In this document: positions 2,134 through 20,154 of the stretch, piece after piece
How positions within the stretch are numbered: the first letter of the stretch is position 1
Layout: each line of letters opens with the position of its first letter
NCBI GenBank assembly: GCA_044226015.1
Contig: JBGAHS010000001.1
Span: forward strand, 576,001-640,000
DNA from: Candidatus Obscuribacteraceae bacterium
GTDB lineage: Bacteria > Cyanobacteriota > Vampirovibrionia > Obscuribacterales > Obscuribacteraceae
Direction of reading: 5' to 3'
DNA length: 64,000 nucleotides
Notes under the pieces: generated by a model
Told to the model about the DNA's origin: nothing
The model's input: the letters and a program-made list of their open reading frames with translations, nothing else
The model's database searches: none
Position numbers and translations under genes: made by a program

Positions 2134-2143
2134 TTTTTTTACC

Positions 2144-3616: not shown

Positions 3617-3620
3617 CTTA

Positions 3621-5042
3621 CTACCACAGTAATTTTGGTGCGGATGTTAAGCCGCAAATGATACTCAGCAAAATCAAAATGGCAGGTATGATACTCGATT
3701 GAATGACTGGTAGAGCCACCACACCTTGCTTCGGAGTGCCTGAGACCATTTTTCCAACGTGCATTGTCACAGAAAGGAAACTCAGCACCAGGGCGATAAG
3801 CAAGACAGCAACAACGCCCCACATATTGTGCTCGGCTCCATTTGCAAGCAAAAGCCACTCTGCTGCAAATGCACCGAATGGTGGCGCTCCTGTAACTGCA
3901 AAAGCGCCCAGCAAAAGACCTATTGCCCAGGCAGGGTTTGCCGCGAATAGTCCTCTGATCTCATTAAGTGATTTTGTTCCAGTTGCTTGAATTATATTGC
4001 CTGAAAGGAGGAACAAGGCAACTTTTGGTGCACTGTGATTGAGTGCCAAAATAAATAAAAGTGGACCAGAATCCAGCCCGATTGCAATTAGCATCAGTCC
4101 TGCGCTCTCTATACTCGAATATGCAAACAATCGCTTGATTCCGTGTTGTCTGATCAAGAAGATGCTTGCCATCAGTACAGTTATTACACCCATTGCGATA
4201 GCCGTGTTTTCTATGAGAATCTTGTGACCTGAAGCGAAAACTATCTCGGACACGCGGAAGATTGAAAAGATTGTGCAGTTCAGGAGTCCGCCCGAAAGCA
4301 TGGCTGATGCTGGCGCTGGAGACTCCGAGTAAGCATCTGGAAGCCAGCCGTGTAAAGGGAAAATTCCAGCTTTTGTGCCGTAACCAAGCAGGCAGAACAG
4401 GAATCCTAACCGTAGCAAAGGATACTGAAGATGTTTTGCATTGCTAATGAGGGTTTGCAAATCGAGAGAACCCTCCGGCGTGGCACCATATTGGCTGGAA
4501 GCGAAAATGCACATCGTTCCGAACAGTGCAAAGGCTATGCCCACGCTGCAAATCATCAAGTATTTCCAGGCGGCCTCAAGCGCGTGCTTATTGCGGTGAA
4601 AATAGACGAGCGGGGCTGAACAGAGGGTCGTAGCTTCAACGCTAATCCACAAGAAACCAAGATTGTTGCAAAAGAATACTGAGGTCATCGCAAGCAGAAA
4701 TAAGGTGGCGCAAGTATAAAAGATACGCAGCTGTATGAGCCTGTCGCTTGCCTGCTCATCGTCTCGTTGAAAAAATAGATGAGCATGCGTCATAGACGAC
4801 GCCACCACAAGTTGTATCAGAACGCAAAAGCTGGCACCCAAATGCGAAATGCTGAACTCTTTAGCAAGTGTGAATTCAGGTACTGTGCCGCTGAGCACCG
4901 GCATGAGGACATAAACGACTATTCCCATTTGCACCCAGAACAGCAAAGCTGAAAGGGAGCTTATGATATTAGTTTGTTTGATTGTCCAAACAAGTAGCAA
5001 TATCACTGCCGGTATGACTAAAAGAAGAGGAAGTGCTGGCAT
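3621..5042 (-). CDS. hyfF: Hydrogenase-4 component F-like proton-translocating membrane subunit
   Basis: Multi-TM; WISVEATTL, LEAAWKY, GYGTKAGIFPLHGWLPDAYSESPAPASAMLSG, IKRLFAYSS. Confidence 0.85.
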   Translation of the reverse strand: MPALPLLLVIPAVILLLVWTIKQTNIISSLSALLFWVQMGIVVYVLMPVLSGTVPEFTLAKEFSISHLGASFCVLIQLVVASSMTHAHLFFQRDDEQASDRLIQLRIFYTCATLFLLAMTSVFFCNNLGFLWISVEATTLCSAPLVYFHRNKHALEAAWKYLMICSVGIAFALFGTMCIFASSQYGATPEGSLDLQTLISNAKHLQYPLLRLGFLFCLLGYGTKAGIFPLHGWLPDAYSESPAPASAMLSGGLLNCTIFSIFRVSEIVFASGHKILIENTAIAMGVITVLMASIFLIRQHGIKRLFAYSSIESAGLMLIAIGLDSGPLLFILALNHSAPKVALFLLSGNIIQATGTKSLNEIRGLFAANPAWAIGLLLGAFAVTGAPPFGAFAAEWLLLANGAEHNMWGVVAVLLIALVLSFLSVTMHVGKMVSGTPKQGVVALPVIQSSIIPAILILLSIICGLTSAPKLLW

Positions 5043-5045
5043 CAG

Positions 5046-5699
5046 TTACTCCTTCAAGTCGGCGAGCATTGTCACATCAATGTGCTCGAAATTCTTCTTG
5101 ATTCTGAATGCAATCAAACCTGCAATCATCACGCCTGCAAGCACATCGAGGAAAATGCCGGTTTCAACAAGCAGCGGCATGCCATGTGTTTGAGTCAACC
5201 CAAAAAGATATATGCCATTTTCTAGAACCAAAAATCCGATTATCTGGCTCAGCGCAATTCTTCGCGTTAGCATCAAGACCAGTCCAGTGCAAACCAGAGA
5301 TATCGCCGAGGTGGCACTTGGCCAGCCAGCTCCGCTAAGAGCAGGAACAGGAAGTTGTTTAGCGAGAATATATGAAAGCGCCATGAATCCGATGGATAAG
5401 TGCATCGCCAGTGGTGAAGCCAGGAGGGTACCGCTATCTCTTTGAACATCTACCTTACGAATGATGAACATCAAAAATACGGGAATGCCTATGGCTTTAA
5501 TCGCATAGAAAGCGACTGCAATCAGATACAAATGTGTGCTTGCTCGTTTTGCCGCAAAGAGGGCTGTAACAATTGCCAGCAATATTGTTTGAATCGAAAA
5601 CATTGATACATTCAGGCGTAAATGCGTTGAGCCCACCATTAGGGCGGCTACTACTGCCGAGAGCAAGCAAATCAAGTCTATGGAAGATAGGTGCGTCAT
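5046..5699 (-). CDS. hyfE: Hydrogenase-4 component E-like membrane subunit
   Basis: SQIIGFLVLENGI and MPLLVETGIFLD motifs; start at ATG 5699, overlapping the upstream TGA (ATGA), with GGAG upstream. Confidence 0.85.
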   Translation of the reverse strand: MTHLSSIDLICLLSAVVAALMVGSTHLRLNVSMFSIQTILLAIVTALFAAKRASTHLYLIAVAFYAIKAIGIPVFLMFIIRKVDVQRDSGTLLASPLAMHLSIGFMALSYILAKQLPVPALSGAGWPSATSAISLVCTGLVLMLTRRIALSQIIGFLVLENGIYLFGLTQTHGMPLLVETGIFLDVLAGVMIAGLIAFRIKKNFEHIDVTMLADLKE

Positions 5700-6616
5700 A
5701 TGATTGTTACTCCTATTGCCACAAGAGAAGCGATCAGGGCAAAGGTCAGAGCGTAAGCGATGAACTCTGGTGCTTTGCGCCAGTTGAGTTTTACCACCAG
5801 AGACTCGAAGACGCCGACAGTTAGAGCCACGCTGCAGGTCGCCGCAATGCTTGCCAGCGACAGTTGCCAGTGATTGAGTCTTTGTATTGATGACAATGAA
5901 TGAAGGTAGCACTGAGCTGACAGACCAAACAAAATCGTCAAGCGTAAGCAATGTCCATATTCGAAAAGCGCGAGGTTTTTTCCTGAAGCTTCAAGAATCA
6001 TCGCTTCGTGAACCATCGTGAGTTCAAGGTGTGTGGTCGGGTCATCGATTGGCATTCTGGAGAGCTCTACCAGGCTTGCTAGCAAGAAAGCTGTTGCGGA
6101 CATAACCCAAATAGCTGGATTGCAATTGGTTTGTGCAAAAATCACGTTCAAGTCTGATGAATGCGCTGACACAGCTAATGCAGCCAGGCTAAGCACCGCT
6201 GCCGGTTCTGTCAAAAATGAAAGGGTTGCTTCTCTGCTAGCTGCAAAGGCTCCGAAGGCAGAGCCTGTGTCCATAGCTGCTAGCATTGTCACAAGTCTGA
6301 TTCCAGCAAACATGTACAAAACCAAGAAAAGATCACACGGTCCCAAATTTGGTTTCGGCGATATCCAGGGCAAAATCATTGATAAATAAACTGAGCCAGC
6401 GACACCAAATGCAGCTGAGAAACGAAATACCCATGATGCTGTTTCGCTCAGTGTTTCGTTTTTTCGAAGCAACTTTACGAGGTCTAGCAACGGCTGCCAG
6501 ATAGGTGAACCAACGCGGTTTTGTAATCGAGCTTTTGTTTTGCGAAGCAGACCCAAAACCAGCCCAGGCAAAATCAGCGTATAAACAAGTAAGCATGCAA
6601 AATCGATGCTTACCAT
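5696..6616 (-). CDS. hyfC: Hydrogenase-4 component C / NuoH-like membrane subunit
   Basis: KARLQNRVGSPIWQPLLDLVKL, GSAFGAFAASRE, RMPIDDPTTHLELTMVHEAMILE; start at ATG 6616 overlapping the hyfB-like stop. Confidence 0.87.
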   Translation of the reverse strand: MVSIDFACLLVYTLILPGLVLGLLRKTKARLQNRVGSPIWQPLLDLVKLLRKNETLSETASWVFRFSAAFGVAGSVYLSMILPWISPKPNLGPCDLFLVLYMFAGIRLVTMLAAMDTGSAFGAFAASREATLSFLTEPAAVLSLAALAVSAHSSDLNVIFAQTNCNPAIWVMSATAFLLASLVELSRMPIDDPTTHLELTMVHEAMILEASGKNLALFEYGHCLRLTILFGLSAQCYLHSLSSIQRLNHWQLSLASIAATCSVALTVGVFESLVVKLNWRKAPEFIAYALTFALIASLVAIGVTII

Positions 6617-8568
6617 AGCAATGTACCTGCGAGCACCAGGACAACCAGCGTTACGCAAACGTACATCAGATATAGATGTATGCTGCCAGCTTGCAGTTTT
6701 GCCACGAGCTGTGAAAGGCGAACTAAAAACGCAGCTGCGGGCTCATAAACCCTTGATTCAAGCAAAGATACCATCGATGGGTCAACGACAATCTTCTCTG
6801 GAAAGTGTCTTCGGTCTTGTCCTGTGATTTCTACTGTGAGGTGGTACTGCAAAACCGGAGTGAAAATTCTTGCGATAGGTTGGGCAAAGCTGTCTGCTGT
6901 AACCTGGCTCTTACTCGTTCCTGAGCCAAAGCCACAATCCCAGGTTATGTATTTGTCTGGAGCACGCTTCAAAATGAGAATGTAAATCAATGACAGGGTG
7001 AAAACGAGAGCAATTGCAACTTGCCAGAGTGGTATTTGAGCAAAAGAGATTGCCAGTGCTTGATTCCCAAAAGCCTGATTAAGCAGAGGCTTAATTGGCG
7101 CGATCAGCCATTTAGCGCTAACGCCGGTGCCGATGCAAGCAAGCGCCAGAATAATTTGCGCTGCAAGCATATCTCGTGGAACTTCGCTTGCATTTTTTGT
7201 TCTAGTTGAACGTGGATTGCCGAGAAATGCAACACCGATGGCTTTTGCATAAGTTGCAATCGACAGCGCCCCGACTGCGGCCAGCACGCCTATGGCGGCG
7301 ACAGCGATGGCTCTGTCTAAGAGTGTTGGCATCGTAAACGATGATTGTAGAAGTGCCTGGTAGAGGCACCACTTACTTGCAAAAATGTTTAATGGCGGCA
7401 ATGCGCAAATCGCTGCGCTACCGAGGAAGAAACAAACCCCCGTGAATGGCATGTTTTTGTTCAGTCCACCGAGTACGGCAAAATCACGCGAGTGCGTTGC
7501 GAAATCTACTGAGCCAGCGCTCAGGAAGAGCAAGCTTTTGCAGAGCGCGTGAGCAAAGCAATGCAATAAAGCTGCTAAGAGTGCAATTTCGGCAAGCGCC
7601 GCTAGCCCCATATTTTTAGCCCAGATGCATAATGCCAGTGACATACATATGAGACCGACATTTTCAACGGTGCTGTATGCCAGAAGTCTTTTAAGCTCGC
7701 GCTGGTTAATTGCGAACAGGACACCCCAAAATGCTGAAACTGTTGCCATGGCAAACGCAATGTATGCCAGTACCTGGGAACTTAAATTTCCGAGTACAAA
7801 GAATCTGATGATGGCATAGATAGCTACCTTAACCATTACTCCGCTCATTAAGGCTGATACCGGACTTGGTGCCTCTGGGTGCGCGTGTGGTAGCCAGATG
7901 TGAAAAGGCCAGACTCCAGCTTTTACAATAAGTCCGAACAGAATCAGTCCTGCAGCCAGGTAAGTAGATGGTTCGGCGAATTGCCAGGACGAAAAGTCGA
8001 CGCTATGGAACTTTGCATACATCATCAAGAAACCCGCGGACAAAAATGCGCTGGCGAGCCTGGTGGCAACCAGGTATATGAAAGATGCATGTTGCGCTCG
8101 TTGTTTTCTGTACTCAGAAACCACAAGTAATGCTGATGACAGTGACATCATTTCCCAACAAACAAGAAAGACGACTGCATTTGCAGAGAGGATTACACCG
8201 ACCATTCCAGCTACAAAAGCGAAGATGGCAGTCCAGTATATGCGTGAATTTATCGTCTCTTTCAAATGATCTAGATATGGCGGCGAGTAAATTGCACAGC
8301 AAGAGCAAACGATGCCCAAAATCAATACGAAAAAGTTTGCAAGTAGATCCGCCCGCAGAACCACTGGTACGAAGCCAATCGCGACCCAGGGCGGAGCCTG
8401 CCATGCAATGTTAGTGTTCCATGTGATCAGCGCCCCCGAAGCAAGCGCTACGCCAATGATTAGCAGAAAGAATGAGGAAATGCGATTTCCAAGTTTCAAA
8501 AATGCAGAGAGGACTGCAAAAACTGCGGGAGCAAAAAAGGATACTGCTGGGACTAATTCAGTCGTCAT
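6610..8568 (-). CDS. hyfB: Hydrogenase-4 component B-like antiporter-type membrane subunit
   Basis: WEMMSLSS, KAGVWPFHIWLPHAHPEAPSPVSALMSGVMVK, LKRLLAYSTVENVG, WDCGF, LQAGSIHLYL. Confidence 0.9.
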   Translation of the reverse strand: MTTELVPAVSFFAPAVFAVLSAFLKLGNRISSFFLLIIGVALASGALITWNTNIAWQAPPWVAIGFVPVVLRADLLANFFVLILGIVCSCCAIYSPPYLDHLKETINSRIYWTAIFAFVAGMVGVILSANAVVFLVCWEMMSLSSALLVVSEYRKQRAQHASFIYLVATRLASAFLSAGFLMMYAKFHSVDFSSWQFAEPSTYLAAGLILFGLIVKAGVWPFHIWLPHAHPEAPSPVSALMSGVMVKVAIYAIIRFFVLGNLSSQVLAYIAFAMATVSAFWGVLFAINQRELKRLLAYSTVENVGLICMSLALCIWAKNMGLAALAEIALLAALLHCFAHALCKSLLFLSAGSVDFATHSRDFAVLGGLNKNMPFTGVCFFLGSAAICALPPLNIFASKWCLYQALLQSSFTMPTLLDRAIAVAAIGVLAAVGALSIATYAKAIGVAFLGNPRSTRTKNASEVPRDMLAAQIILALACIGTGVSAKWLIAPIKPLLNQAFGNQALAISFAQIPLWQVAIALVFTLSLIYILILKRAPDKYITWDCGFGSGTSKSQVTADSFAQPIARIFTPVLQYHLTVEITGQDRRHFPEKIVVDPSMVSLLESRVYEPAAAFLVRLSQLVAKLQAGSIHLYLMYVCVTLVVLVLAGTLLW

Positions 8569-8810: not shown

Positions 8811-8848
8811 GCATCTGCGAATATACGTATATTCGAAGATGCTAACAC
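8811..8848. promoter_or_regulatory. Putative ArsR-family operator, copy 1 (32-bp near-perfect palindrome upstream of the ehr operon)
   Basis: GCATCTGCGAATATACGTATATTCGAAGATGC (8811-8842), one mismatched pair; contains the shared ATAT-N4-ATAT core. Confidence 0.65.
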
Positions 8849-8926
8849 GCAATTGTGGCCGCCATGTGACCACCGGAAACCTATGAACGTGTTCCATTGC
8901 AAAGAGCAAACTGTTTTTTTTGAGTC

Positions 8927-9244
8927 TTAAAGTGATTCGAGCATGTCTTTCACACCAACCAGGTGGTTGTTGAAAATTTCCTTTGCCACATCAAGCATTT
9001 TGAATATTGTCGGGTCAGTGCAAGCGTAGTAAATGTTGCTGCCTTGTTTTCGACCGACGACAATGTTTTTTGAGCGAAGTATGGAAAGCTGCTGCGAAAC
9101 ATTGGCAGCTTCTACATCTAGTCGAGACTTAAGTTCAGATACAGTCAGTTCGCCATTTCGCAATTCGTCCAGAATATTTATTCTTAGCGGACTGGCAAGC
9201 GCCTTGAAAAATTCGGCTTTAAATTCCTGCAATTTGTTCGGCAT
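8927..9244 (-). CDS. ArsR/SmtB-family transcriptional regulator (Rv0081-like)
   Basis: KAEFFKALASPLRINIL...ELTVSEL...NVSQQLSILR...GSNIYY; resembles Rv0081, which heads the M. tuberculosis hyc/ehr operon; same orientation as the ehr genes. Confidence 0.9.
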   Translation of the reverse strand: MPNKLQEFKAEFFKALASPLRINILDELRNGELTVSELKSRLDVEAANVSQQLSILRSKNIVVGRKQGSNIYYACTDPTIFKMLDVAKEIFNNHLVGVKDMLESL

Positions 9245-9277
9245 AAACTTGACTCGCGATACGTTGATTATTTGATG

Positions 9278-9305
9278 ATATACGCATATTGAAAAATTTT
9301 GTAGT
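9278..9305. promoter_or_regulatory. Putative ArsR-family operator, copy 2 (upstream of arsR1)
   Basis: ATATACGCATATTGAAAAATTTTGTAGT, ~34 bp upstream of the arsR1 start; more degenerate than other copies. Confidence 0.45.
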
Positions 9306-9577
9306 GCATTTTGTATTGCTCAGCAGCAATAATAGCCATCCTTTTAATGTATTTTGTCGAGCATTAGCAACAGAAAGATTTGATCGACAAAAATGATCTA
9401 GAAAAAGTGGATCGCTCACTCTTCGGAAACAAGAATTGATCACCATATGTGGTGGCGGTATGAGTCTGAACTCGCATGCCGTAAACAAGTCTTTCGCCAG
9501 TCTTTCGCCAGCTCTCTTATGCAGGAAGGCTTTGCGAAAGCCTGATGAAAGGCTCGTGAAAGCTTTGAAAAATCTTG

Positions 9578-9605
9578 ATATGCATATATTCAAACTCTTG
9601 CATAT
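9578..9605. promoter_or_regulatory. Putative ArsR-family operator, copy 3 (upstream of the ABC exporter operon)
   Basis: ATATGCATATATTCAAACTCTTGCATAT; the last 20 bp reverse-complement to ATATGCAAGAGTTTGAATAT, matching the other copies. Confidence 0.65.
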
Positions 9606-9658
9606 TTACATGCGTCATGTTAATTTCAATCTTACGACCTTCAGTGGTGACATAAGAA

Positions 9659-11443
9659 ATGAACAACCCGGCGCAGAAGAAAATCCGACCGCTAGAGCGC
9701 TTTTGGGCTCTAGTAGCTGCCGACCATCAGGATTTGATTGTTCTATCTGTACATATTGTATTGACCGGACTGATCTCACTAGCGGTGCCGCTAGCTGCTC
9801 AGTCTCTTGTAAATACCATTGCTGCCGGTATCTTTTTGCAACCATTGATAGTACTCTCCTTTTTACTATTAGGCGGATTGTTGTTCGGCAGTATTCTGCG
9901 AATGCTTAAATTCTGCCTGGTTGAAACATTGGAGCAACGCATCTTCGCGCGCATCACCTTGCAGCTTAGCGAGCGCATTCCATCGATTAAGTCTTCCGCC
10001 CTCAACAAAGAATACATGCCAGAGCTAATCAACAGGTTTTTTGATGTGATGAACATCCAAAAATCTTGGGGTAAGCTGCTGCTTGAAGTTCCAACAGCAT
10101 TGCTGCAGGTTCTCATAGGACTTCTGCTCATGGCGTTTTACAGTCCATTCTTGTTGGCGTTCGATTTGCTCATAATTGTTTTTGTTTTTTTTGCAGTGAG
10201 CGTCCTTGGAATCGGTGGACTTTCATCCAGCATCAGAGAGTCGGCTTCCAAATATCGTGTCGCGGAATGGCTCGAGGACATGGGCAGATGCCAGACCAGT
10301 TTGAAGAGTTTTGGTATTCCAAAATTCTTGCTCAGGCGCTCTGACAGTCTGGTTCTCGATTATTTGAAATCCAGGAGAGAGCACTTTTCGGTTTTGTTCA
10401 GGCAAGCTTTTGGCACTTATATTTTCCAGGCATTCGCGAGCGCTGGGGTTTTAGCAATTGGAGGATGGTTGGTTATTAACAGGCAGCTGACTCTTGGACA
10501 ATTAGTCGCGGCGGAAATAGTTGTGTTGAACGTGTTGTCTGCACTGGAAAAACTCGTTCGCAATTGTGACACTTTTTACGACCTGCTTACGGGATTAGAC
10601 AAGGTTGGGCACATTAGCGATCTTCCACTTGAGCGCGATGGTGGTACCAGCCTCTCTGAAGATGGAGATGGGTTGACGGTAGAATGTCTCAAACTTCACT
10701 TCTCATACGATTCAAGAGAGGTTCTCTCTGGAGTAAATCTCTCAATTGCATCAGGCGAGCGAGCCAGTCTTGTGGGGGCGAGTGGTGCCGGGAAAACCAC
10801 GCTTGCTTCTCTGATTTGTGGACTTCAAGACGCCAGTCAGGGCACTGTGGAAGTTGGTGGATATGACGTCAGAGATCTCAATCTTAAATCGCTTCGCAGC
10901 CAGCTGGGTCTCGTGGGTGATAGCAATGAAATTTTTGAGGGAAGCATTGAAGACAATATCAGCCTTGGGCGAGCAAATGTTAACCATCAGGACATACGGT
11001 GGGCGCTCAATGTTGCCCAGTTCACTGATGATTTGATTGAGCTTCCGCAGGGTTTGAACACAGTTGTGATAAGTGGCGGACGAAATCTATCAAGGGGTCA
11101 GGTTCAGCGTCTTCTGCTTGCCAGGGCTATTGTTGAACGCCCACGTTTGCTGATACTCGACGAAGCTTTTGTAGGAATCGATGAAAAAACAAAGTTGAAA
11201 ATTCTGGATTCACTTTTTGCTAAGGAAAACAAATGGACAGTGTTGGATATTTCGCATGATGCAGAAGTTGTTATGCGATCAGACAAGGTATACGTTTTGA
11301 GTGCAAGCAAGATCTCAGAGTCTGGACATCCAGCAGACCTCGCCTGGCGTGCAGACAGCGAGTTCGCTGTGCTGTTTCCTGAGTTAGCGATGCAGATTCG
11401 CTCTTCTGAAAGAAGGAGAAAGGAAAGAGTTGGTCAAGCGTAA
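9659..11443 (+). CDS. Type I secretion-like ABC exporter (TMD + ATPase, no C39 domain)
   Basis: TM domain, LTLGQLVAAE, Walker A GASGAGKTT, signature LSRGQ, Walker B LLILDE, ISH. Confidence 0.9.
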   Translation: MNNPAQKKIRPLERFWALVAADHQDLIVLSVHIVLTGLISLAVPLAAQSLVNTIAAGIFLQPLIVLSFLLLGGLLFGSILRMLKFCLVETLEQRIFARITLQLSERIPSIKSSALNKEYMPELINRFFDVMNIQKSWGKLLLEVPTALLQVLIGLLLMAFYSPFLLAFDLLIIVFVFFAVSVLGIGGLSSSIRESASKYRVAEWLEDMGRCQTSLKSFGIPKFLLRRSDSLVLDYLKSRREHFSVLFRQAFGTYIFQAFASAGVLAIGGWLVINRQLTLGQLVAAEIVVLNVLSALEKLVRNCDTFYDLLTGLDKVGHISDLPLERDGGTSLSEDGDGLTVECLKLHFSYDSREVLSGVNLSIASGERASLVGASGAGKTTLASLICGLQDASQGTVEVGGYDVRDLNLKSLRSQLGLVGDSNEIFEGSIEDNISLGRANVNHQDIRWALNVAQFTDDLIELPQGLNTVVISGGRNLSRGQVQRLLLARAIVERPRLLILDEAFVGIDEKTKLKILDSLFAKENKWTVLDISHDAEVVMRSDKVYVLSASKISESGHPADLAWRADSEFAVLFPELAMQIRSSERRRKERVGQA

Positions 11444-12854
11444 TATGAATCTAGAAACTAAATCATCCAATAGTTCATCGTTAAGTGCTTCATCCTATGA
11501 GTCATTGAAAGCTGTGCAGTCACCTCAAGCCTTTGGCACCATTGCGATATTGCTTTTTGTAGTTCTCATTTCCGTTATTCTAGTGCTGGCTTATGTGCCA
11601 TGGCAGCAAAGTGTTTCAGCTTCGGGAAAAATCATCATTTTTTCTCCTATGCAGCGTCCTCAAAATATTGAGGCTCAGATTCCTGCAAGATTGAAGAAAT
11701 GGTATGTCCAAGACGGACAGGTCGTTCACAAAGGCGAGTTGATTGCTGAGTTGTCTGATCTAGACCCGAAGTTTCTTGACCCACAATTAGCTAAGCGCTT
11801 ATCTTCTCAAATACAAGCTCTAACTGCCAGGCGCGAAGCAGCAGCTACACGAAGTAGCGCTCTGACCAAGCAACTTGAGAGTTTGCGTCGCTCGCAGAAA
11901 GCTGCGATTCCTTCTGCAGGGGAAAGAGCCCAGCAAGCGGAAGACAGAGTGTGGGCAGCTTCGCAGGCAGTGGATGCGGCAAAGCAAAACATAATAACTA
12001 CCGAAGCAAATTTGAATCGATTGAAAGATCTCTATTCGAATGGATTGCGCTCTAAGCGAGATCTTGAACTTGCTGAGCTTGAGCAAACGAAGGCAGCTAC
12101 TGAGCTTGAACGTGCGCGAGCTGCTCTAGACGTGGCAAAAAGAGATAAGACTGTTGCTGTCTTAGATCAAGACAAAGTTGCTGCAGATACTGATGCTGCT
12201 CTGAGTAATATTGGTGCATCCATAGCTGCGGCTCAGGAGACGATCGAAACAACATCGAGTGACATATTCAAACTCGAAATTGAGTTGCAGAATTTTCAAG
12301 GACGTGCAGAACAAAGAAAAGTTTTTGCTCCAACAAATGGCAAGATTGTCAGACTTTTGAAAGTAGGTGCTGGCGAAACGGTTGATGCTGGAATGGTCTT
12401 AGCAGTCATCGCGCCTGAGACGCAAGATCTCGCTGCAGAGCTGAATATCAGCGATAACGATGCCCCATTGGTTGCTGTAGGCAGACCTGTAAGACTTCAG
12501 TTTGCTGGCTGGCCGGCATTGCAATTCTCTGGCTGGCCCTCGATTGCCGTTGGAACCTTTGGTGGCAGAATTGCAGTTATCGATGCTATTGATGATGGAC
12601 GCAATAATTATCGGGTGATAGTCAAACCTGACAAAGAGGCAATAGCGCAGGGTAGAGATGAGCCGTGGCCTGATTCAAAATTTCTGCGACCAGGAGCGGA
12701 AGTTTCTGGGTGGATTATGTTAGATCGAGTTAGCCTTGGATTTGAGTTATGGCGCCAATTTAACGCGTTCCCACCGACAGTAAAACCGGAAGAGCTTGGC
12801 TTGCACAAGTCGCCTCAAGGTGAAAAGCCGGACATAAAGAGAAAGTCCAAGTGA
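11430..12854 (+). CDS. HlyD-family periplasmic adaptor (membrane fusion protein)
   Basis: Single N-terminal TM, WYVQDGQVVHKGELI lipoyl half-motif, long coiled coil, APTNGKI, VRLQFAGWP. Confidence 0.9.
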   Translation: MVKRNMNLETKSSNSSSLSASSYESLKAVQSPQAFGTIAILLFVVLISVILVLAYVPWQQSVSASGKIIIFSPMQRPQNIEAQIPARLKKWYVQDGQVVHKGELIAELSDLDPKFLDPQLAKRLSSQIQALTARREAAATRSSALTKQLESLRRSQKAAIPSAGERAQQAEDRVWAASQAVDAAKQNIITTEANLNRLKDLYSNGLRSKRDLELAELEQTKAATELERARAALDVAKRDKTVAVLDQDKVAADTDAALSNIGASIAAAQETIETTSSDIFKLEIELQNFQGRAEQRKVFAPTNGKIVRLLKVGAGETVDAGMVLAVIAPETQDLAAELNISDNDAPLVAVGRPVRLQFAGWPALQFSGWPSIAVGTFGGRIAVIDAIDDGRNNYRVIVKPDKEAIAQGRDEPWPDSKFLRPGAEVSGWIMLDRVSLGFELWRQFNAFPPTVKPEELGLHKSPQGEKPDIKRKSK

Positions 12855-12864
12855 GGCAGCAAAA

Positions 12865-14340
12865 ATGTGCTTGAACTCGCAAAAATTGTTTTTTGTGGTT
12901 TTGTTGTGCGCAACAGAATTGCTAACTTGTGCTGCAACGTTTGCGCAAAACGAAGCAATTGAACCAAATGTTGTTTTGCGAGAGCTTCCCACTTCGACTA
13001 GCACTCAGGGTCAACCATTCTCTTTAGATTTTTTCTTGAAGGCTGTGGAAAGAAATTATCCAAAGCTGAAAAGTGCCGACGCGGAGAAGCGTATAGCGAA
13101 TGCTAAGCGCCTGGAGAAAGCTGGTGCCTTTGACCCTGTTTTGACTAGCGTGAACGAGTATCTCAGAGTCCAAGATTCATTCATTCCGGGAAAACCGAAA
13201 AACGCAGTACATAATGAATCGCGTGTTGATCTCCTCACTAGATCTGGCATAAAACTATTTACCGGCGCTCGTTTGAACCCCAACGATACAAAGACACCAT
13301 TTGTGCCAACAGGAAGAGCTGGCGAATATTATGGTGGCGTTGCTGTCCCGCTGCTTCGCGGCTTGCGCATCAATGAGAAAAAAGCAGCTGAAGACCAGGC
13401 CAAGCTCGGTGAGCCACTAGCAGGTCATGTATTTGCTTCCACGCGTCTTGAATTACTTTTGAAAGCCGCAGCTTCTTACTGGGAATGGGTCGGAGCAAAA
13501 GCGCGCATCGACATTTCTCGAAACCTCCTCAATTTAGCACAGGCAAGGGTTAGCCAAATCAAGCGACGTGTAGATAAGGGTGACTTGCCTGCTCTTGATG
13601 TAGCGGAGTCTGAGCAAGAAATTCACCGGCGTGAAGCGGCACTTGTGAAAAGCGAACGCGAGTTCCAAAAGTACTCATTGCTTCTTTCTGTATTTTTGTG
13701 GGATGAATCGGGAAACCCTTCTCCTGTCCCCACTGAGAAAGGTGTTCCGTCCTTAGAGCCTGAGCCCAGCAAAATCTCAGAGGCGGAATGGAGCGAAGGA
13801 AGAAAGCGAGCTATAGAGCTGCGACCTGAACTGAAGCGAATTTCGATGGAACGAGAGCAAGCCAGAGTTGATTTGCGATTAGCCGAAAATATGATGCTTC
13901 CGGTTATGGATGCTTATCTTGCCCAGGGGGCAGATACAGGCACTCAAGGCATCGGCCCTGTCGTGAGAGGCGGAGTCTCTCTTTCCGTTCCGCTGAGACA
14001 AAGGACCGCTAGAGGTTTGGTACAGGCCGCTAAGTTGAAGATTCAGAAGCTAACTTTCGATGAAACTGCGGAGAAACAGCGTATACAAGCTGAAGTCGAC
14101 GATGCTGTCTCTGCTGTGAATACATCATGTGAACGATGGAATGCGACTCTTCTCGAGGTGAAAAAGGCAAAACAAGTTGAAAATGGCGAGCGCTTGCGTT
14201 TCGGCTCAGGTGATAGCACCTTATTTCTCGTCAACCAGCGAGAGCGTGCCTCAGCCGAAGCGCAGATGCGACTCGTTGAAGTACATACGGAGTACTTACA
14301 GGCGCTGGCAGCGTTTCGTGCTGTAATCTGTCGACTGTGA
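12865..14340 (+). CDS. TolC-family outer membrane efflux protein
   Basis: Signal peptide, AIELRPEL, GDSTLFLVNQRE; follows the ABC and HlyD genes. Confidence 0.88.
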   Translation: MCLNSQKLFFVVLLCATELLTCAATFAQNEAIEPNVVLRELPTSTSTQGQPFSLDFFLKAVERNYPKLKSADAEKRIANAKRLEKAGAFDPVLTSVNEYLRVQDSFIPGKPKNAVHNESRVDLLTRSGIKLFTGARLNPNDTKTPFVPTGRAGEYYGGVAVPLLRGLRINEKKAAEDQAKLGEPLAGHVFASTRLELLLKAAASYWEWVGAKARIDISRNLLNLAQARVSQIKRRVDKGDLPALDVAESEQEIHRREAALVKSEREFQKYSLLLSVFLWDESGNPSPVPTEKGVPSLEPEPSKISEAEWSEGRKRAIELRPELKRISMEREQARVDLRLAENMMLPVMDAYLAQGADTGTQGIGPVVRGGVSLSVPLRQRTARGLVQAAKLKIQKLTFDETAEKQRIQAEVDDAVSAVNTSCERWNATLLEVKKAKQVENGERLRFGSGDSTLFLVNQRERASAEAQMRLVEVHTEYLQALAAFRAVICRL

Positions 14341-14351
14341 AAGAATTGATC

Positions 14352-14394
14352 TTGACCAATATGTTGATATATAGATATGCTAATGTTTGAACAT
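14352..14394 (+). promoter_or_regulatory. Sigma70-like promoter of arsR2 overlapped by operator copy 4
   Basis: TTGACC(14352)-N18-TATGCT; operator ATATATAGATATGCTAATGTTTGAACAT at 14367-14394. Confidence 0.6.
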
Positions 14395-14412
14395 TACAAA
14401 ATGAGGTCGCCC

Positions 14413-14796
14413 ATGCCTTACAGAGCTGTGGTAAGCGCGGAATTGGCAAAGCTATTTGGCATTTTGTCTCATCCCATACGTATTCGAATCATTGAAGAGT
14501 TAAAGAAAGAAGATCTGACTGTTGGAACCTTGAAAGATATCCTTGGCATAACTCATTCGGCAGTGTCACAGCAGCTAGCCGTCTTGCGCACCAATCATTT
14601 GGTAGCTGAAATGCGGCAAGGTCGAAACGTGTTTTACCATCTTCGCAAGCCGGAATTGGCTCAGTGGATCATGGATGGTGTCAGCTTTATATCACCCGAT
14701 GCTTCCGAGATGGAGCAGATGATGTCTGCAATTCAAAACGTGAAGTCTGTATGGGGCGAAGAAGAGAAGCCAAAGCGCAAGAAGCGCGGAGCCTGA
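14413..14796 (+). CDS. Second ArsR/SmtB-family transcriptional regulator
   Basis: LFGILSHPIRIRIIEEL...LTVGTL...SAVSQQLAVLR...GRNVFY; start moved to ATG 14413 (GAGG upstream; the ORF-track start lies inside the operator). Confidence 0.9.
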   Translation: MPYRAVVSAELAKLFGILSHPIRIRIIEELKKEDLTVGTLKDILGITHSAVSQQLAVLRTNHLVAEMRQGRNVFYHLRKPELAQWIMDGVSFISPDASEMEQMMSAIQNVKSVWGEEEKPKRKKRGA

Positions 14797-15049
14797 ATTC
14801 TGATTTCGCTGTCCTGTTGCATGCAGCTTAGAGCCAGTGGTAATTTGAGTGCTCGGCTAATTCGCCTGAGTGCTTTATATGATCCTGCCGAATTGCTCGT
14901 GTTTGGAATCTTGTGGCGCTAATTGAAGGCAAGAGAATATGCTGAAAAATGCAACGTTCAACCACTAGAAACAATTTTGTGTAAATGCTGCAGTCATCTT
15001 ACAGGAACTCTCTTTCTGTATGCTTTCAATGGAAATATGCTTTGATAAT

Positions 15050-15077
15050 ATATGCAAATGTTTGCACATCTAAATAT
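15050..15077. promoter_or_regulatory. Putative ArsR-family operator, copy 5
   Basis: ATATGCAAATGTTTGCACAT followed by CTAA-ATAT; 19/20 identical to the core of copy 6. Confidence 0.7.
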
Positions 15078-15151
15078 TTAAGGATAACCCGCGCTGTTTT
15101 GCGTACGGCTGTTTCCGGACTTTGAAGCTATTTGAGAGCACTGTGCCATTA

Positions 15152-15179
15152 TTGACACGCCATAGCTTGCGGTTATACT
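15152..15179 (+). promoter_or_regulatory. Sigma70 promoter of the murF-like/dabB/dabA unit
   Basis: TTGACA-N16-TATACT. Confidence 0.6.
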
Positions 15180-15192
15180 TCTAATTATTGTG

Positions 15193-15220
15193 ATATCTAA
15201 ATATGCAAATATTTGCACAT
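15193..15220. promoter_or_regulatory. Putative ArsR-family operator, copy 6 (between promoter and RBS)
   Basis: ATATCTAAATATGCAAATATTTGCACAT, just downstream of the -10 and upstream of GAGG. Confidence 0.7.
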
Positions 15221-15234: not shown

Positions 15235-16215
15235 ATGTACGCTGAATTTACCGCGAACGAAATTTTGAATGCAACTGTTGGTCGTCTCGAATCAGGAAGT
15301 CCCGATGGTGGAAAGGGCAATCTGGTTTGGGATTTCGGCGAAATTAAAGAGGGTGATTGGTTCCTAGCTCTCAGCTCAGCAAGCGATGATCCACACGATT
15401 GTCTTGACCTTGCCTTTCAGTGCGGTGCCCGCGGAGTGATAGTGAATCGGAGGAATCGCTATGCTTCAGCACCACGAGGCTCGACTATCATCACCGTAGC
15501 TGACACCACTACCGCGCTGATAGATCTCGCACGCCACTGGCGCCATACGCTTAACCCCAAAGTTGTAGGGGTGACAGGCAGTTTCGGAAGACGTGCTACC
15601 ATGCTCTTGCTGAATCAATTGCTGCAAAGTAAATTCAGCACTCATCTTGCCTTTGTTGGAAGTATGGGGCGCCTTTCATGTGCGAAGGAAGTCCTGGCAA
15701 TGCCAGTGGGCACCGAAGTTCTCATATTCGAGGCTGGTGCAATAGAACGAGGTGACATCACAAGAATTGGTGGTGCACTCGAACCAGACCTCGCCGTTTT
15801 GACCCAAATTCGACATCCATTGCCGTCCGCTGCTCGTGATACCTTCGTTTCTGCCCTCTACTGTGAGTTGCTCGAGACTGTCTCAAGTCAGGACGAAGAC
15901 TTACCTTCTGCTGTAATTTACGATGACAATACTTCTGTTCAAGCGCGTGTGGATTCCGTAGCAAAAGATATGAATCTGCGACGCTTTTCGCAGGGTGAAC
16001 TTGGAATTGTCAATTCACTGTCAGAAAGTTTTGTGCGAGATCTGAGTCAGGCGATGCAAACAGCAATCGGTCATGCTGTCTCGCGTGCAGAAATTTGGTG
16101 CGCTGTGGAAGCTGCACAAGTTTTGGGAATCGGCACAGACACCTTGCAAGAGATCTTTGAAGTGCGTGCCTCGGCACAGCAGTCTGATGCACCGTATTGT
16201 GAACTTCTTATATAA
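15235..16215 (+). CDS. Degenerate, truncated MurF/Mur-ligase-like protein
   Basis: MurF-like N-domain (IKEGDWFLAL..DPHD..AFQCGA..ITVADTTTALIDLA) and VVGVTGSFGRRAT P-loop remnant; no C-terminal domain; GAGG before ATG 15235. Confidence 0.75.
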   Translation: MYAEFTANEILNATVGRLESGSPDGGKGNLVWDFGEIKEGDWFLALSSASDDPHDCLDLAFQCGARGVIVNRRNRYASAPRGSTIITVADTTTALIDLARHWRHTLNPKVVGVTGSFGRRATMLLLNQLLQSKFSTHLAFVGSMGRLSCAKEVLAMPVGTEVLIFEAGAIERGDITRIGGALEPDLAVLTQIRHPLPSAARDTFVSALYCELLETVSSQDEDLPSAVIYDDNTSVQARVDSVAKDMNLRRFSQGELGIVNSLSESFVRDLSQAMQTAIGHAVSRAEIWCAVEAAQVLGIGTDTLQEIFEVRASAQQSDAPYCELLI

Positions 16216-16226: not shown

Positions 16227-17705
16227 ATGACTACAGAAATTTTTGTTGTTAATGAAATACTCGCTTTGTTAGTGCTTCCGCTGGCACTGCTGGCAAGCTT
16301 TCTTCTACCTGGCGAGTCGAAAGTAAAAGCCTTATTACTCAGCCAGTTATGTGCATTCGCTCTGGCACTAATTGGTGGGATTTTGAGGCTTGCAGTTCCA
16401 CAGCTGCCAGTCCTTGCAGGAGCCGAGTTCTTCTCCTTTCATTTCAACGCTATGTCATCTTGTCTGCTGGCAGCAGTTCTTTTCATAGCCTCAGTGGTTT
16501 TAGTGTTTAGCGAAAGATATTTGAGTGGTGAAACAAATCGCTTGAATTTCTTGCGGGGTATCATGCTGCTAAGTTCTGCTGCTTCACTTCTTACAGTCAC
16601 TGACAGCATTGTCACTGCAATAGTTTGCTGGCACGTTCTGTCCTTGGGGCTCTGGTCTTTGATGCGAATGCAGCCTCTCAGTTCGCGACAAGCCGAAGGC
16701 GTCATACTCTTTCACCTGTCGAGTGATTTGTTGATGCTGCTTGCAAGCGTGTTGGTCATTGTTTATGGTTCTTGCACGAGATTTAGTGAATTGAGTGCTG
16801 ATGCTCATCTCAGTGGAGTCCAAAATGGAATTGTATCTTCACTACTAGTGCTCGCTTTCGGAATTAAATCTGCACTTTTCCCTTTCCATAAGTGGTTGTT
16901 GAACACGCTGAATGCTCCTACACCCTTGTCTGGACTTTTGCATGCGGGTGTGGTGAACGTTTCGGCTGTGATGGCTCTCAATTTCAGCCCGATATTATCT
17001 GGGCAAACGATGGTGATGCTTGCTTGGGCATCTTGGGCTGCAATTTCTGCAATGCTGGGTACCCTGAGTATGTCAGCGCAGCCCGATGTGAAAAGAAAAC
17101 TTGTCTACTCTACAGTTGGGCAGATGGGATTCATGCTGTTGCAATGCGCTAGTGGTGCATATGCTGCGGCCATCTTCCACTTAATCGCTCACGGAATGTT
17201 CAAATGCCATATGTTTCTCCAGTCAGGAAGCGCAGTTGCAGATGGAATAGCTAAGCGCAAGTTTGCATATGTTGGAGATTCGAATCTTGCGAATTTGCTC
17301 TGCGTAACACTGCTGTCTACAGCTTGCTGCGTCGGAATGCTCTTTCTAAGAGACTTCAACTGGACAGTGATCTCAGCTCTGATAACTGCTGCTGCCGTGT
17401 CCTGTGCTATTCCGACTCTCGGCAGAGTGCGATTTGCCACGCTGTCTGCTTTCTGGCTTCTTTGTATTGGAGTTGTTTCACTGGCGGAACTATTCAGTCT
17501 TAAACTCGAGTCACTCTCAGTGGTGACCCAGGGGGATAATTCACTCTTCTTGGCTCTAGCGCTATTGGTCTTTGCCCTTGGCTCAGTTTTTCTGGCGTTC
17601 ATTCGTGAGAGCCGCTTGTCTAAATGGATTTATGTTCAGGGACTGAATGGTTTCTATGCCGATGAGATGGGTGCGGCGGTATTGCGCAGTATCAATGGCA
17701 AGTAG
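16227..17705 (+). CDS. dabB: DabB, NuoL/ND5-like membrane subunit of a DAB inorganic carbon transporter
   Basis: FPFHKWL..TLNAPTPLSGLLHAGVVN, DVKRKLVYSTVGQMGFMLLQC, FHLIAHGMFK; directly upstream of a DUF2309 gene. Confidence 0.88.
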   Translation: MTTEIFVVNEILALLVLPLALLASFLLPGESKVKALLLSQLCAFALALIGGILRLAVPQLPVLAGAEFFSFHFNAMSSCLLAAVLFIASVVLVFSERYLSGETNRLNFLRGIMLLSSAASLLTVTDSIVTAIVCWHVLSLGLWSLMRMQPLSSRQAEGVILFHLSSDLLMLLASVLVIVYGSCTRFSELSADAHLSGVQNGIVSSLLVLAFGIKSALFPFHKWLLNTLNAPTPLSGLLHAGVVNVSAVMALNFSPILSGQTMVMLAWASWAAISAMLGTLSMSAQPDVKRKLVYSTVGQMGFMLLQCASGAYAAAIFHLIAHGMFKCHMFLQSGSAVADGIAKRKFAYVGDSNLANLLCVTLLSTACCVGMLFLRDFNWTVISALITAAAVSCAIPTLGRVRFATLSAFWLLCIGVVSLAELFSLKLESLSVVTQGDNSLFLALALLVFALGSVFLAFIRESRLSKWIYVQGLNGFYADEMGAAVLRSINGK

Positions 17706-17742
17706 ACCACATTTGCTTGATAGTTTTTTTTCTGGAGGAAAC

Positions 17743-20154
17743 ATGATTAATAGTCCTACGAAGTCGGCTGACACATTGACTGATGCAATTGAAGAAGCTA
17801 CAGCTTGTCTTGGTTTTCTTTATCCACTAAGCAATTTCATTGCATGTAATTCTCTGAAAGGATTTGAGGATCTGCCCTTCCACGCTGCTATGAGGGCTGC
17901 CAGGGAACTCTTCGGATGTCGCGGATTCCTGCCCCTTGCAGATTTCAGAGCCATGTATGAGTCGGGGCGAATTTCTCCTGCTAACTTGCAGCTGGCTTTC
18001 CACAAAAACCAGCGTGCAAAAGCAATTACTCCAAGCTATTCAAAACGACAATTTTGTATCGCTGAATTGTTGGATAAGAACGCAGGTACAGATATCGTAG
18101 AGACGATCAACAAGCAAATGATCAAATGGTGTAACGCCTATTTGGATAGTACTCAAGCTCAGAATAAGCCTCACGTAAATGGCGGTTTCTTCATGTTCTG
18201 GAAAAATCTGGCGAGATACGACTTTTCTTTGATCTTCAAGCAAGTTCCCTATTCTTCTGAAGTTATTGATTATTTGCCTGAGAACTCAGAAGATGCGCTT
18301 GATGGTTTGCTCTCAGAGTTGGAGTTAAAGAAAGAGCAAATCGCAGCGTATTTGACTCGCCATGCTGTTCACTTGCCCGGAATTACGAGCCACCTGAAGT
18401 GGCGCGACAAGGAAGGCATTGAACCTGGAATTCTCACTGACTATCTGGCTATTCGACTTTATTATGAAAAGATACTGAGCCAGTCTATTAGCCGCAAACT
18501 TTATCGTAGTGTTGATCTGGCTCTTGTTCGCTCACTTTTAGAGGCAGAACTTGGTGAGGAAGTTGAAGAGTCAGAGGACTATGGACCCGTTTGGCTTGAA
18601 GCATACGAACTGAATTTCCGAGACAAGTTGCTCGCTTCTCTCAAACCAAAAGACGACAGCACCCAGGAGTCCAAAGACTGTCAATTAGTGTTTTGTATAG
18701 ATGTTCGCTCTGAACCTGTTCGAAGAGAACTAGAAGGAACGAATAAATATTCGACTTTCGGATTCGCGGGTTTCTTTGGTATGGCGATGCAATTGACCGA
18801 ACTTGGCAGCAAATTGCCGCTCGATCTCTGCCCTGCGTTGATCAAACCTGATAAGAAGGTAAGAGAGTATGCCACCGGTGACGGTGCCAGCAAGAAGCTC
18901 GATTGGCAGGCATTGAAGACCTCTGCCTTGCTGCTAAAAAAGCGGCTTAAGTGTGATCTTGCAAGCGCCTTCGGACTTGTCGAATCCATAGGAATATTCT
19001 CGGCGCTGCCGCTTGCGGCAAAGACTTTCTTTCCTGAATTTTCTCTAGGGCTTGTGGACGAACTAGAGCAAAAACATGCGGCGTGCTCGCCAACGAAACT
19101 AGACTGCTCTGCGATATCTGTGAAAGATAGAGTTGCTATGGCTGAAGGGGCTATTAAAGGAATTGGACTCAAGCAGTTCGGGAAACTGATAGTGCTTTGC
19201 GGACACAGAAGTAGTTCAGTGAACAATCCCTTTGCTGCTTCTCTCGACTGTGGTGCTTGTGGTGGCAACGGCGGTGGCGCTAGTGCAAGACTGGCGGCTG
19301 ACATATTGAATGACACTGAGGTCAGGCTCAGGCTTGTAGAGCGTAAGATTCTAATACCATCAGGCACTTTGTTTGTCGCTGCTGAACATGACACCACCAC
19401 TGATGAGTTCACCGTTTTTGAGCCTGTGAAGGTTTCAGTCGAGCAGCTGCGAATTTTGGATGAACTGCGTGATGACCTCGCGATAGTTGGACAGAAAGCT
19501 CGCGCGAAAAGGGAAAAGCTACTTCCAAAAACCTGTTTGCCTAAACTCAATGCGCCAGAAATTCGTGCGAAAGATTGGGCGCAGATTGCTCCTGAGTGGG
19601 GCTTAGTTGGAAACGCTGCCTTTATTGCTGCTCCGCGCTGGGTTTCGAAAGACGCAGACCTTGAGTCTAGAGTCTTTCTGCATTCCTATGAGTGTGATAA
19701 TGACCCCGGCAACAAGGTGCTTGAATTGATAATGACTGCACCGCTTGTGGTGGCGCAGTGGATAAATGCACAGTACTACATGTCTACTGTCGATAATGAA
19801 ACTCTGGGTAGCGGTAGCAAGGTGTTTCATAATGTCGTTGGCGACTTTGGTGTGATGCAGGGTGAGTCTAGTGATTTGAAGATGGGACTTCCCCGGCAGT
19901 CGGTGATGACCGTGGAAGGGATAAGACATGAACCCATGCGCTTGCTTGCGGTAATTAGAGCGAAGTGTTCTTCAATCGATAGCGTTTTGCGGGCTCACCC
20001 AGAAGTCAGAAAACTTGTCGTGAATCAATGGATTCGCCTGGTTGCAATAGAACCTGAAACAGGAGTTTTCTTTGAAGCTGAAGATTGCGAGAAATGGTTC
20101 CCGCTGCATCTAGGGAGTTCACAGGTTGCCGTTGACCTGGCTATGAGCGTGTAG
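17743..20154 (+). CDS. dabA: DabA (DUF2309/UPF0753), beta-carbonic-anhydrase-like subunit of the DAB pump
   Basis: FCIDVRSE, GFAGFFG, CGHRSSSVNNPFAASLDCGACGG, PEWGL, FLHSY, HEPMRL; putative Zn ligands intact; GGAGG before ATG 17743. Confidence 0.92.
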   Translation: MINSPTKSADTLTDAIEEATACLGFLYPLSNFIACNSLKGFEDLPFHAAMRAARELFGCRGFLPLADFRAMYESGRISPANLQLAFHKNQRAKAITPSYSKRQFCIAELLDKNAGTDIVETINKQMIKWCNAYLDSTQAQNKPHVNGGFFMFWKNLARYDFSLIFKQVPYSSEVIDYLPENSEDALDGLLSELELKKEQIAAYLTRHAVHLPGITSHLKWRDKEGIEPGILTDYLAIRLYYEKILSQSISRKLYRSVDLALVRSLLEAELGEEVEESEDYGPVWLEAYELNFRDKLLASLKPKDDSTQESKDCQLVFCIDVRSEPVRRELEGTNKYSTFGFAGFFGMAMQLTELGSKLPLDLCPALIKPDKKVREYATGDGASKKLDWQALKTSALLLKKRLKCDLASAFGLVESIGIFSALPLAAKTFFPEFSLGLVDELEQKHAACSPTKLDCSAISVKDRVAMAEGAIKGIGLKQFGKLIVLCGHRSSSVNNPFAASLDCGACGGNGGGASARLAADILNDTEVRLRLVERKILIPSGTLFVAAEHDTTTDEFTVFEPVKVSVEQLRILDELRDDLAIVGQKARAKREKLLPKTCLPKLNAPEIRAKDWAQIAPEWGLVGNAAFIAAPRWVSKDADLESRVFLHSYECDNDPGNKVLELIMTAPLVVAQWINAQYYMSTVDNETLGSGSKVFHNVVGDFGVMQGESSDLKMGLPRQSVMTVEGIRHEPMRLLAVIRAKCSSIDSVLRAHPEVRKLVVNQWIRLVAIEPETGVFFEAEDCEKWFPLHLGSSQVAVDLAMSV

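Follow-up and report, generated by a model that had tools for sequence, protein, structure and literature searches.

Does one operator tie together the genes of an island in a Candidatus Obscuribacteraceae bacterium, or does each of the two ArsR/SmtB-type repressors encoded there have a site of its own? The island lies in a stretch of 64,000 nucleotides (contig JBGAHS010000001.1, positions 576,001 to 640,000; hereafter the window) and comprises a Hyf-like, hydrogenase-related operon (Ehr), the repressor genes arsR1 and arsR2, an ABC-HlyD-TolC exporter, and the operon of a DAB inorganic-carbon pump. A sequence-only reading had seen one motif six times between these genes and proposed that both repressors jointly control the whole island. 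We found a genuine feature with good conservation, made up of two sister operators rather than one. The pattern of sites and neighboring genes makes it rather probable that two modules have been joined in the island, each repressed by its own ArsR via its own box and both responding to CO2/bicarbonate rather than to a metal.

Six candidate sites resolve into two sister operators

All six strings occur as originally written, each of the transcription units has a site, and the promoter placements are as described, one box overlapping a promoter and another lying just downstream of one (Table 1). The six are not copies of one motif, and a single matrix in a single register fails for two of them. 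Under a leave-one-out palindromic 20-bp matrix, 4, 3, 1, and 1 of 921,300 intergenic positions equal or exceed 9586, 14375, 15050, and 15201 in score, whereas 3,540 and 3,769 positions do so for 8829 and 9286; the figures count background positions and do not give ranks, as the intergenic mask, taken from crude open reading frame (ORF) calls, wrongly covers some true sites. Because thousands of intergenic positions score equally, 8829 and 9286 are not copies of the strong 20-bp box. When the proposed ATAT-N4 prefix is added, the resulting 28-mer matrix improves them to 33 and 155 positions, because the prefix there belongs to a site in another register. At the strong boxes the prefix is a flank conserved in part: 8/30, 17/33, and 3/26 sites of relatives have it exactly, and 21/30, 29/33, and 16/26 have at least three of its four bases.

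The register first chosen for 8829 and 9286 was rejected, as an ArsR2 matrix derived from relatives gives them -11.6 and -9.7 bits. The four strong boxes form one 20-bp palindrome, ATATGCAAA-N2-TTTGCATAT, which we call ArsR2-type. Shifted by 16 bp, the weak sites (8813-8840 and, weakly, 9270-9297) match a sister operator, AATTGCGAA-N2-TTCGCAATT, here called ArsR1-type. The identification of the sites as ArsR-type operators was right, and the local ArsRs are likely to be their binders.

The ArsR2-type operator is conserved over three kinds of promoter

A matrix of 67 distinct sites from relatives, which were themselves selected with a window-trained matrix, ranks the four window boxes first to fourth in the 8.19-Mb genome. 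Relatives were surveyed in 80 ArsR2-family loci kept out of 419 confirmed; loci collected earlier overlap these 80 and are not counted. A box was called where the four-site matrix gave at least 10 bits within 300 bp upstream of a gene; the relatives are kin, and their counts overstate independence. Exporter genes have such a box in 33 of 37 cases, close arsR2 genes in 38 of 44, and the first genes of DAB units in 29 of 32; for distant and for middling arsR2 paralogues the figures are 20 of 22 and 21 of 38. None was found upstream of 15 genes for SulP or carbonic anhydrase (CA), many of them with an arsR2 gene immediately before them. Control regions had a box in 15 of 154 cases, and in 0 of 113 once 41 regions near starts of regulon genes had been removed. 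In a de novo motif search confined to relatives, the same palindrome came up before ABC genes (in 5 sequences) and before murF-like genes (in 8). Before arsR2 alone this search locked on a shifted AT-rich register, and the matrix scan recovered the box there.

The relation of the boxes to predicted sigma70 promoters is also conserved. A -35-like hexamer has the same offset from the exporter box in 29 of 30 relatives and a -10-like hexamer in 24 of 30, and the arsR2 -35 lies at offset -23 in 23 of 33. Box position 7 is T in 32/33 arsR2 boxes versus A in 30/30 exporter boxes, because the -10 inside the arsR2 box requires T. In a 10-sequence alignment of DAB promoters, TTGAC, TATACTT, and the box vary little or not at all. 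With sites, ranks, conservation, and promoter overlap all observed directly, ArsR2 very probably represses the exporter, arsR2, and DAB.

The DAB promoter has a second box (15050), and 15 of 27 DAB promoters, anchored by the -10, likewise have one 148-177 bp upstream. The spacings cluster at 148-151, 160-161, and 167-171 (p 0.007 on distinct values, from kin sequences that are not independent). Across relatives the spacing of the pair (15050-15220 in the window) varies in steps of about 10 bp, suggesting a DNA loop. A leftward arsR2 paralogue is flagged at the 15050-type box in 11 of 27 DAB promoters; it is missing in the window, where no remnant was detected in 14781-15240 (best E 0.21). Looping and a leftover divergent promoter both fit the 15050 box. 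Four further candidate members of the ArsR2 regulon (C10:431739, C3:222297, C5:111757, and C10:432288), near cytochrome c/Usp, hydrolase, and GntR genes, were not accepted.

The ArsR1-type operator precedes Ehr operons

The ArsR1-type palindrome was found de novo before hyfB in 14 relatives, with an information of 21.5 versus 9.6-10.5 in three shuffles. Half-site position 7 is G in 19 of the 28 halves of these hyfB sites, and both weak window sites, read in the shifted register, carry G there too, like most ArsR1-type boxes. Of 34 distinct ArsR1-type sites, 17 have a second box overlapping the first at 8 bp. This is the sole offset seen between 1 and 12, in part owing to the motif's own period. 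In a 28-bp matrix of these 34 relatives-only sites, 8813-8840 ranks 16th in the genome at 15.1 bits, with 3 intergenic positions scoring as high, and 9270-9297 ranks 150th at 10.2 bits, with 31 such positions. The former has a TAGC flank on the minus strand, as do 9 of the 14 de novo hyfB sites. Three loci share the window's layout, in which hyfB follows arsR1 in the same direction (L143, L148, and L167); their box lies 72-105 bp after arsR1, and that of the window at 89-97. ArsR1 quite probably uses 8813-8840, and the 9270-9297 site suggests probable autoregulation of arsR1.

The weak sites might alternatively be no operators at all, with 8811-8842 a terminator-like hairpin after arsR1 and 9278 just AT-rich promoter DNA. 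The 32-bp palindrome is present as reported, with 30/32 bases paired and one mismatched pair, about 85 bp past the arsR1 stop; it is one of 20 loop-less 32-bp palindromes with at most one mismatched pair genome-wide, and the single-box scores are a modest 8.7 and 3.6 bits. However, 8811-8842 is without a T-run and is not called as a terminator, the three same-layout relatives have non-palindromic ArsR1-type boxes at the same place, and by eye the L167 arsR1 site is matched at 23 of 28 bases. We consider the hairpin quite improbable.

Further matches to this operator occur elsewhere. The top genome match of the ArsR1 matrix, C12:37431, lies before a MarR-GNAT gene and was set aside as probably a MarR site; around it is another loop-less 32-bp palindrome with at most one mismatched pair (G000:C12:37429-37460; L226:6430-6461), just after the promoter-like sequence of that gene and probably the operator of its own regulator. 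In relatives, at L191:5449-9864, L179:16410-19120, and L192:15186-18797, four to seven strong ArsR1-type boxes in a row precede small genes without annotation, which suggests a larger ArsR1 regulon. In the window, 36236-36255 matches the ArsR1 matrix at 18.1 bits before a 519-aa ORF (36466-38025) without a Pfam match.

Probably two autoregulated units rather than one regulon

Joint control of the island by both ArsRs is not supported, as the strong boxes follow ArsR2 and the weak sites follow ArsR1. Across 107 genomes of the order, ArsR1 was found in 74 and DabA in 49, and the two are close only in the window and in G102:C36 (on shared contigs, with coordinates by eye and many assemblies fragmented). 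They are 0.3-2.5 Mb apart in G054, G065, G069, and G076 (by eye). In G102:C36 the modules lie within about 55 kb, and there Ehr has an ArsR1-type box and the exporter and DAB have ArsR2-type boxes. ArsR1 and ArsR2 are 37% identical and fall into separate clades in a quick tree without an outgroup.

A single degenerate operator read by both ArsRs, or by a heterodimer, would make the whole island one regulon. Both box types do share an A..T-N4-A..T-N4-A..T frame, the ArsR1 matrix rates 15050 and 15201 at 16.7 and 16.0 bits, the hyfB genes of L041 and L044 are preceded by ArsR2-like boxes, and the modules are clustered a second time in G102:C36. The ArsR2 matrix, however, gives at most 1.5 bits for every register of the two weak sites, each module of G102 has its own box type, and the separation of the modules in four genomes and of the proteins in the tree also argues against a shared regulon. 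We regard it as unlikely and two autoregulated repressor units as the likely arrangement. One-way cross-talk, with ArsR1 also reading ArsR2 boxes, is possible, the reverse probably not.

The difference between the boxes may lie in the recognition helix. G at half-site position 7 occurs in 44 of 72 half-sites beside ArsRs with an Asn helix versus 13 of 170 otherwise, in a count made with a matrix blind at that position over 121 sites of 181 rows, in which some genes were counted twice and kin are not independent. Bacillus proteins of the ArsR1 clade that have an ArsR2-like helix have an ArsR2-type box. This could be read in favor of a shared operator as well; in our view a helix code explains it better than ancestry alone.

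Gene content of the island

The Ehr operon has the six-gene set of a Hyf-like complex and lacks Ni-binding CxxC pairs, as expected of Ehr; no such pair is found among the seven Cys of the large subunit, which therefore has no Ni site. The DAB operon has dabB beside dabA, and the C-x-D, H, and C motifs of the window DabA match what we take to be the DabA zinc ligands. No RuBisCO was found in the host genome (92% complete). An Rfam search gave zero matches across window positions 8400-16300.

Table 1. Genes of the island with predicted promoters and operators (window coordinates)
Feature	Coordinates	Strand	Remarks
Ehr operon (Hyf-like, hydrogenase-related)	1369..8568	-	hyfB, hyfC, hyfE, hyfF-like, large and small subunits; Pfam/NCBIfam
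ArsR1-type tandem operator	8813..8840		two 20-bp boxes offset by 8 bp (8813-8832, 8821-8840), inside palindrome 8811-8842
arsR1	8927..9244	-	Rv0081-like ArsR/SmtB repressor, 105 aa, recognition helix EAANVSQQ; PF01022 and NF033788 above cut-off
Weak ArsR1-type tandem site	9270..9297		26-53 bp before arsR1; 20/28 bases identical to 8813-8840
Exporter ArsR2-type operator	9586..9605	+	covers -35 TTGCAT 9598-9603; -10 TAATTT 9621-9626; genome rank 4
ABC-HlyD-TolC exporter	9659..14340	+	adjoins arsR2 in 44/80 loci
arsR2 promoter TTGACC-18-TATGCT	14352..14394	+	ArsR2-type operator 14375-14394 covers -10
arsR2	14413..14796	+	Cys-free ArsR/SmtB repressor, 127 aa, helix THSAVSQQ, extra C-terminal helix
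Second ArsR2-type box at DAB	15050..15069		151 bp before 15201; genome rank 2
DAB operon promoter TTGACA-16-TATACT (15152-15179)	15152..15220	+	ArsR2-type operator 15201-15220 just downstream; genome rank 1
Truncated MurF-like protein, DAB operon gene 1	15235..16215	+	TIGR01143 under cut-off; in 23/39 DAB-containing loci
dabB-dabA inorganic-carbon pump	16227..20154	+	PF00361 and PF10070, E 8e-228
cysD	20213..21031	+	possibly read through from dabA

The MurF-like protein keeps conserved DxHD, HPLP, and CE motifs, its ATP-binding loop appears degenerate relative to what we take to be the MurF motifs, and it is a possible accessory or regulatory subunit of the DAB operon. In relatives, a divergent beta-CA with CSD and HSxC motifs kept lies directly 5' of longer dabB variants (L033:8652-9341, L029:7516-8181, and L021:8669-9304), and many have a DUF6671 gene (PF20376) 3' of dabA (L027:14907-15743 and L028:142-1035) that is not in the host genome. 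cysD is near arsR2/DAB in just 3 of the 80 loci. A second ABC-HlyD-TolC paralogue (G000:C1:439303-444080; L219:6303-11080; HlyD identity 54%) lies between kinase genes, with no ArsR2-type match of at least 14 bits listed nearby. A second, distant homologue of complex-I/hydrogenase large subunits (G000:C1:161221-162597) is 22% identical to the Ehr large subunit.

The repressors lack metal- and persulfide-sensing motifs

Both repressors carry the HTH_5 winged helix (PF01022, 38.3 and 33.3 bits, cut-off 22; NF033788, 80.3 and 78.8, cut-off 55), and the AlphaFold2 model of ArsR2 (pLDDT 88.8) has a winged helix-turn-helix plus a helix at 97-114. The inverted-repeat operator over the own promoter is conserved for arsR2, with the box on the -10; for arsR1 the site is weak. 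The best PDB sequence match of ArsR1 is Rv0081 (E 3.9e-15), and its KAEFFK helix and Hyf/Ehr linkage likewise mark it as Rv0081-like. The ArsR2 profile places Rv0081 fifth, and the combination is found in ArsR1 only. Neither ArsR has the alpha3 CxC of a metal site, as alpha3 reads ELTVSEL and DLTVGTL. Aligned to NmtR, ArsR1 has D77 and H94 and lacks the two inner His, at what are presumably the ligand positions. The alpha2/alpha5 Cys pair of the persulfide type is absent from both (ArsR1 has one Cys, ArsR2 none). The BigR model gives 56.7 and 52.7 bits against a cut-off of 155. The single Cys of ArsR1 is kept within the order, and Cys75 is missing in six homologues from other phyla.

Gene neighborhoods and the inducing signal

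Neighborhoods were likewise observed directly. Of the 80 ArsR2-family loci, 54 have a gene for DAB, beta-CA, SulP, or a bestrophin-like protein, 44 have the exporter, 22 have both, and 4 neither. Among 41 ArsR1 copies in 36 stretches, chosen from the best matches, 30 have Ehr within 4 kb, 10 have CA or SulP, and 34 have either; none of six other ArsR matches in the host genome has Ehr, CA, or SulP within 8 kb. On plasmids, for which 9 of 97 records with ArsR1 homologues were examined, CA, SulP, or Ehr is annotated beside the homologue in six: SulP in two Bacillus, SulP and CA in Streptomyces, CA in Pseudonocardia, CA and phosphoenolpyruvate (PEP) carboxykinase in one Rhodococcus, and Ehr in Allomeiothermus. 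The Granulicella and Nostoc records and a second Rhodococcus have none of these annotated, the last with a SulP-like fragment. The ArsR1 box family is also present in actinomycetes of 66-70% GC. The plasmid collection held no ArsR2 match at 1e-12. In the phylum of G120 (301 genomes), all six ArsR2 matches flank the exporter, four with a box. No sulfurtransferase or metal pump was found among 71 scanned neighbors, which included one Metal_resist domain.

CO2/bicarbonate suggests itself as the signal because both families are without metal or persulfide motifs and adjoin DAB, SulP, CA, or Ehr, also in other phyla. We judge the case for inorganic carbon as the physiological signal to be evenly balanced. 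The two operators could be as described and the repressors respond instead to pH, oxygen/redox, sulfur, a partner protein, or a modification, which seems somewhat less likely but a serious contender. CA, SulP, DAB, and Ehr serve pH balance too, cysD and SulP have sulfur roles, the one Cys of ArsR1 is kept within the order, outside the order no neighbor accompanies ArsR2 more constantly than the exporter does, and Rv0081 is described, in the part of the publication available, as hypoxia-linked and possibly under phosphorylation or formate control (10.1101/465575). What speaks against such signals is the missing Cys pair and the low BigR scores, the loss of Cys75 in other phyla and the Cys-free ArsR2, the lack of any sulfurtransferase or metal pump among the 71 scanned neighbors, one Metal_resist domain aside, and the recurrence of unrelated carbon-handling families beside these genes.

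Several observations weigh against the preferred reading of two ArsR units governed by inorganic carbon. On the operator side, a palindrome alone is no proof, the 67 sites were not chosen independently of the window, the loci compared are kin, the 9270 site is weak, and the 28-bp ArsR1 matrix is not very specific, scoring 9578 at 11.6 bits, above 9270, and having its best genome match at the MarR-GNAT gene; 2 of 14 hyfB upstream regions have ArsR2-like boxes (L041 and L044). On the signal side, no clear box lies upstream of the host's beta-CA gene or of its three SulP genes, and no DAB, CA, or SulP was seen near the ArsR2 matches of the G120 phylum in the stretches examined. An expected pairing of the exporter with CA in Bacteroidota was not borne out, with no carbon genes near exporter homologues on three annotated plasmids. 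SulP also carries sulfate, and cysD lies 3' of dabA. The response of Rv0081 to CO2 (see below) is small, 1.7-2.75-fold (PMC11895460), and maybe indirect; as an induction by high CO2 it is the opposite of what an uptake pump needs.

Relation to known systems

The closest parallel to ArsR1 is the Rv0081-Rv0088 (hyc/Ehr) locus of Mycobacterium tuberculosis, where, according to the available text, a metal-free ArsR heads a Hyf-like operon and binds an upstream inverted repeat (10.1101/465575). A 20-base stretch of the published Rv0081 probe matches the ArsR1 consensus at 12/20 positions by eye, the A..T frame included. The window differs in having separate sites for arsR1 and Ehr, the 8-bp-offset tandem, and the adjoining DAB operon and second repressor. 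That text describes no metal site and a possible anion site in Rv0081 and proposes formate or phosphorylation, whereas our reading proposes CO2 (10.1101/465575). In an expression study accessible in part, Rv0081 was induced 2.75-fold (pH 5.7) and 1.71-fold (pH 7.0) by 5% versus 0.5% CO2, with the hyc locus among the induced genes (PMC11895460). A sequence-network study describes, in its accessible sections, the Rv0081 cluster of ArsR proteins as largely uncharacterized and places ArsR/SmtB DNA specificity in helix alpha4 (PMC10054925); its figure S2 or table S2 may already note carbon genes near that cluster.

With the ArsR/SmtB sensors SmtB, CzrA, NmtR, CadC, SqrR, BigR, and HlyU, the window ArsRs share the winged-helix fold, autoregulation, and an AT-rich inverted repeat on the promoter. 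Unlike these, they have no alpha3 CxC, no complete alpha5 ligand set, and no alpha2/alpha5 Cys pair; they have carbon-handling neighbors, and ArsR2 has an extra conserved C-terminal helix. The window pump resembles DAB2 (DabA2/DabB2) of Halothiobacillus neapolitanus and MpsAB of Staphylococcus aureus in consisting of DabA plus DabB, but differs in its predicted control by ArsR boxes, its MurF-like lead gene, and its occurrence in a genome where RuBisCO was not found. In the H. neapolitanus screen, as far as its text is available, the needed regulators are of LysR and Crp/Fnr types, "ArsR" occurs zero times, and the role of DAB in heterotrophs is left open (10.1101/476713). Ehr of Melainabacteria and sibling lineages was described as a Hyf-like membrane complex without Ni ligands and with no demonstrated substrate; the accessible part of that paper proposes pairing with a formate dehydrogenase and links Ehr neither to CA nor to SulP or DAB (PMC6349859). 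"ArsR" and "Ehr" occur zero times in PMC10880623. A supposed link of hyf to SulP/CA in PMC6458275 proved wrong, as "hyf" occurs zero times there. The open literature yielded no paper that places DAB, CA, or SulP under an ArsR regulator, and none that describes these boxes (subscription papers, supplements, and regulon databases were outside the scope).

A proposed mechanism and its implications

We propose that the four strong boxes are the targets of ArsR2, whose dimer would block RNA polymerase on the -35 of the exporter promoter, on the -10 of the arsR2 promoter, and just past the start at the DAB promoter. Its release at low inorganic carbon would switch on DAB in a bacterium in which no RuBisCO was found. 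The in-phase 15050 box may be an auxiliary looping site or the leftover of a lost paralogue. For ArsR1 the proposed targets are the 8-bp-offset tandem sites ahead of Ehr and arsR1; a pair of its dimers would occupy the Ehr promoter and perhaps come off under high CO2 or acid load, in keeping with the induction of the Rv0081 locus in M. tuberculosis. ArsR1 may read the ArsR2 boxes too; the reverse is improbable.

More speculatively, and with considerable doubt, ArsR1 (with the widespread Rv0081 group) and ArsR2 could be two branches of an undescribed ArsR class that senses CO2/bicarbonate directly. They would be told apart by a one-residue helix code, in which Asn reads G and Ala/Gly reads A at half-site position 7, and would run a heterotrophic carbon/pH system with DAB, SulP, CA, the exporter, and Ehr. 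If the ligand idea fails, the locus would still hold two autoregulated ArsR units of an ordinary kind, their sites newly defined. The initial picture of one regulon is in either case corrected to two, with a candidate recognition code. The locus supplies matched predicted repressor-operator pairs, predicted promoters, and one ligand hypothesis, CO2/bicarbonate, so that the inducer of the Rv0081 group becomes testable with small proteins and short DNA. If the hypothesis is true, the orphan Ehr complex would have a role in inorganic-carbon handling.

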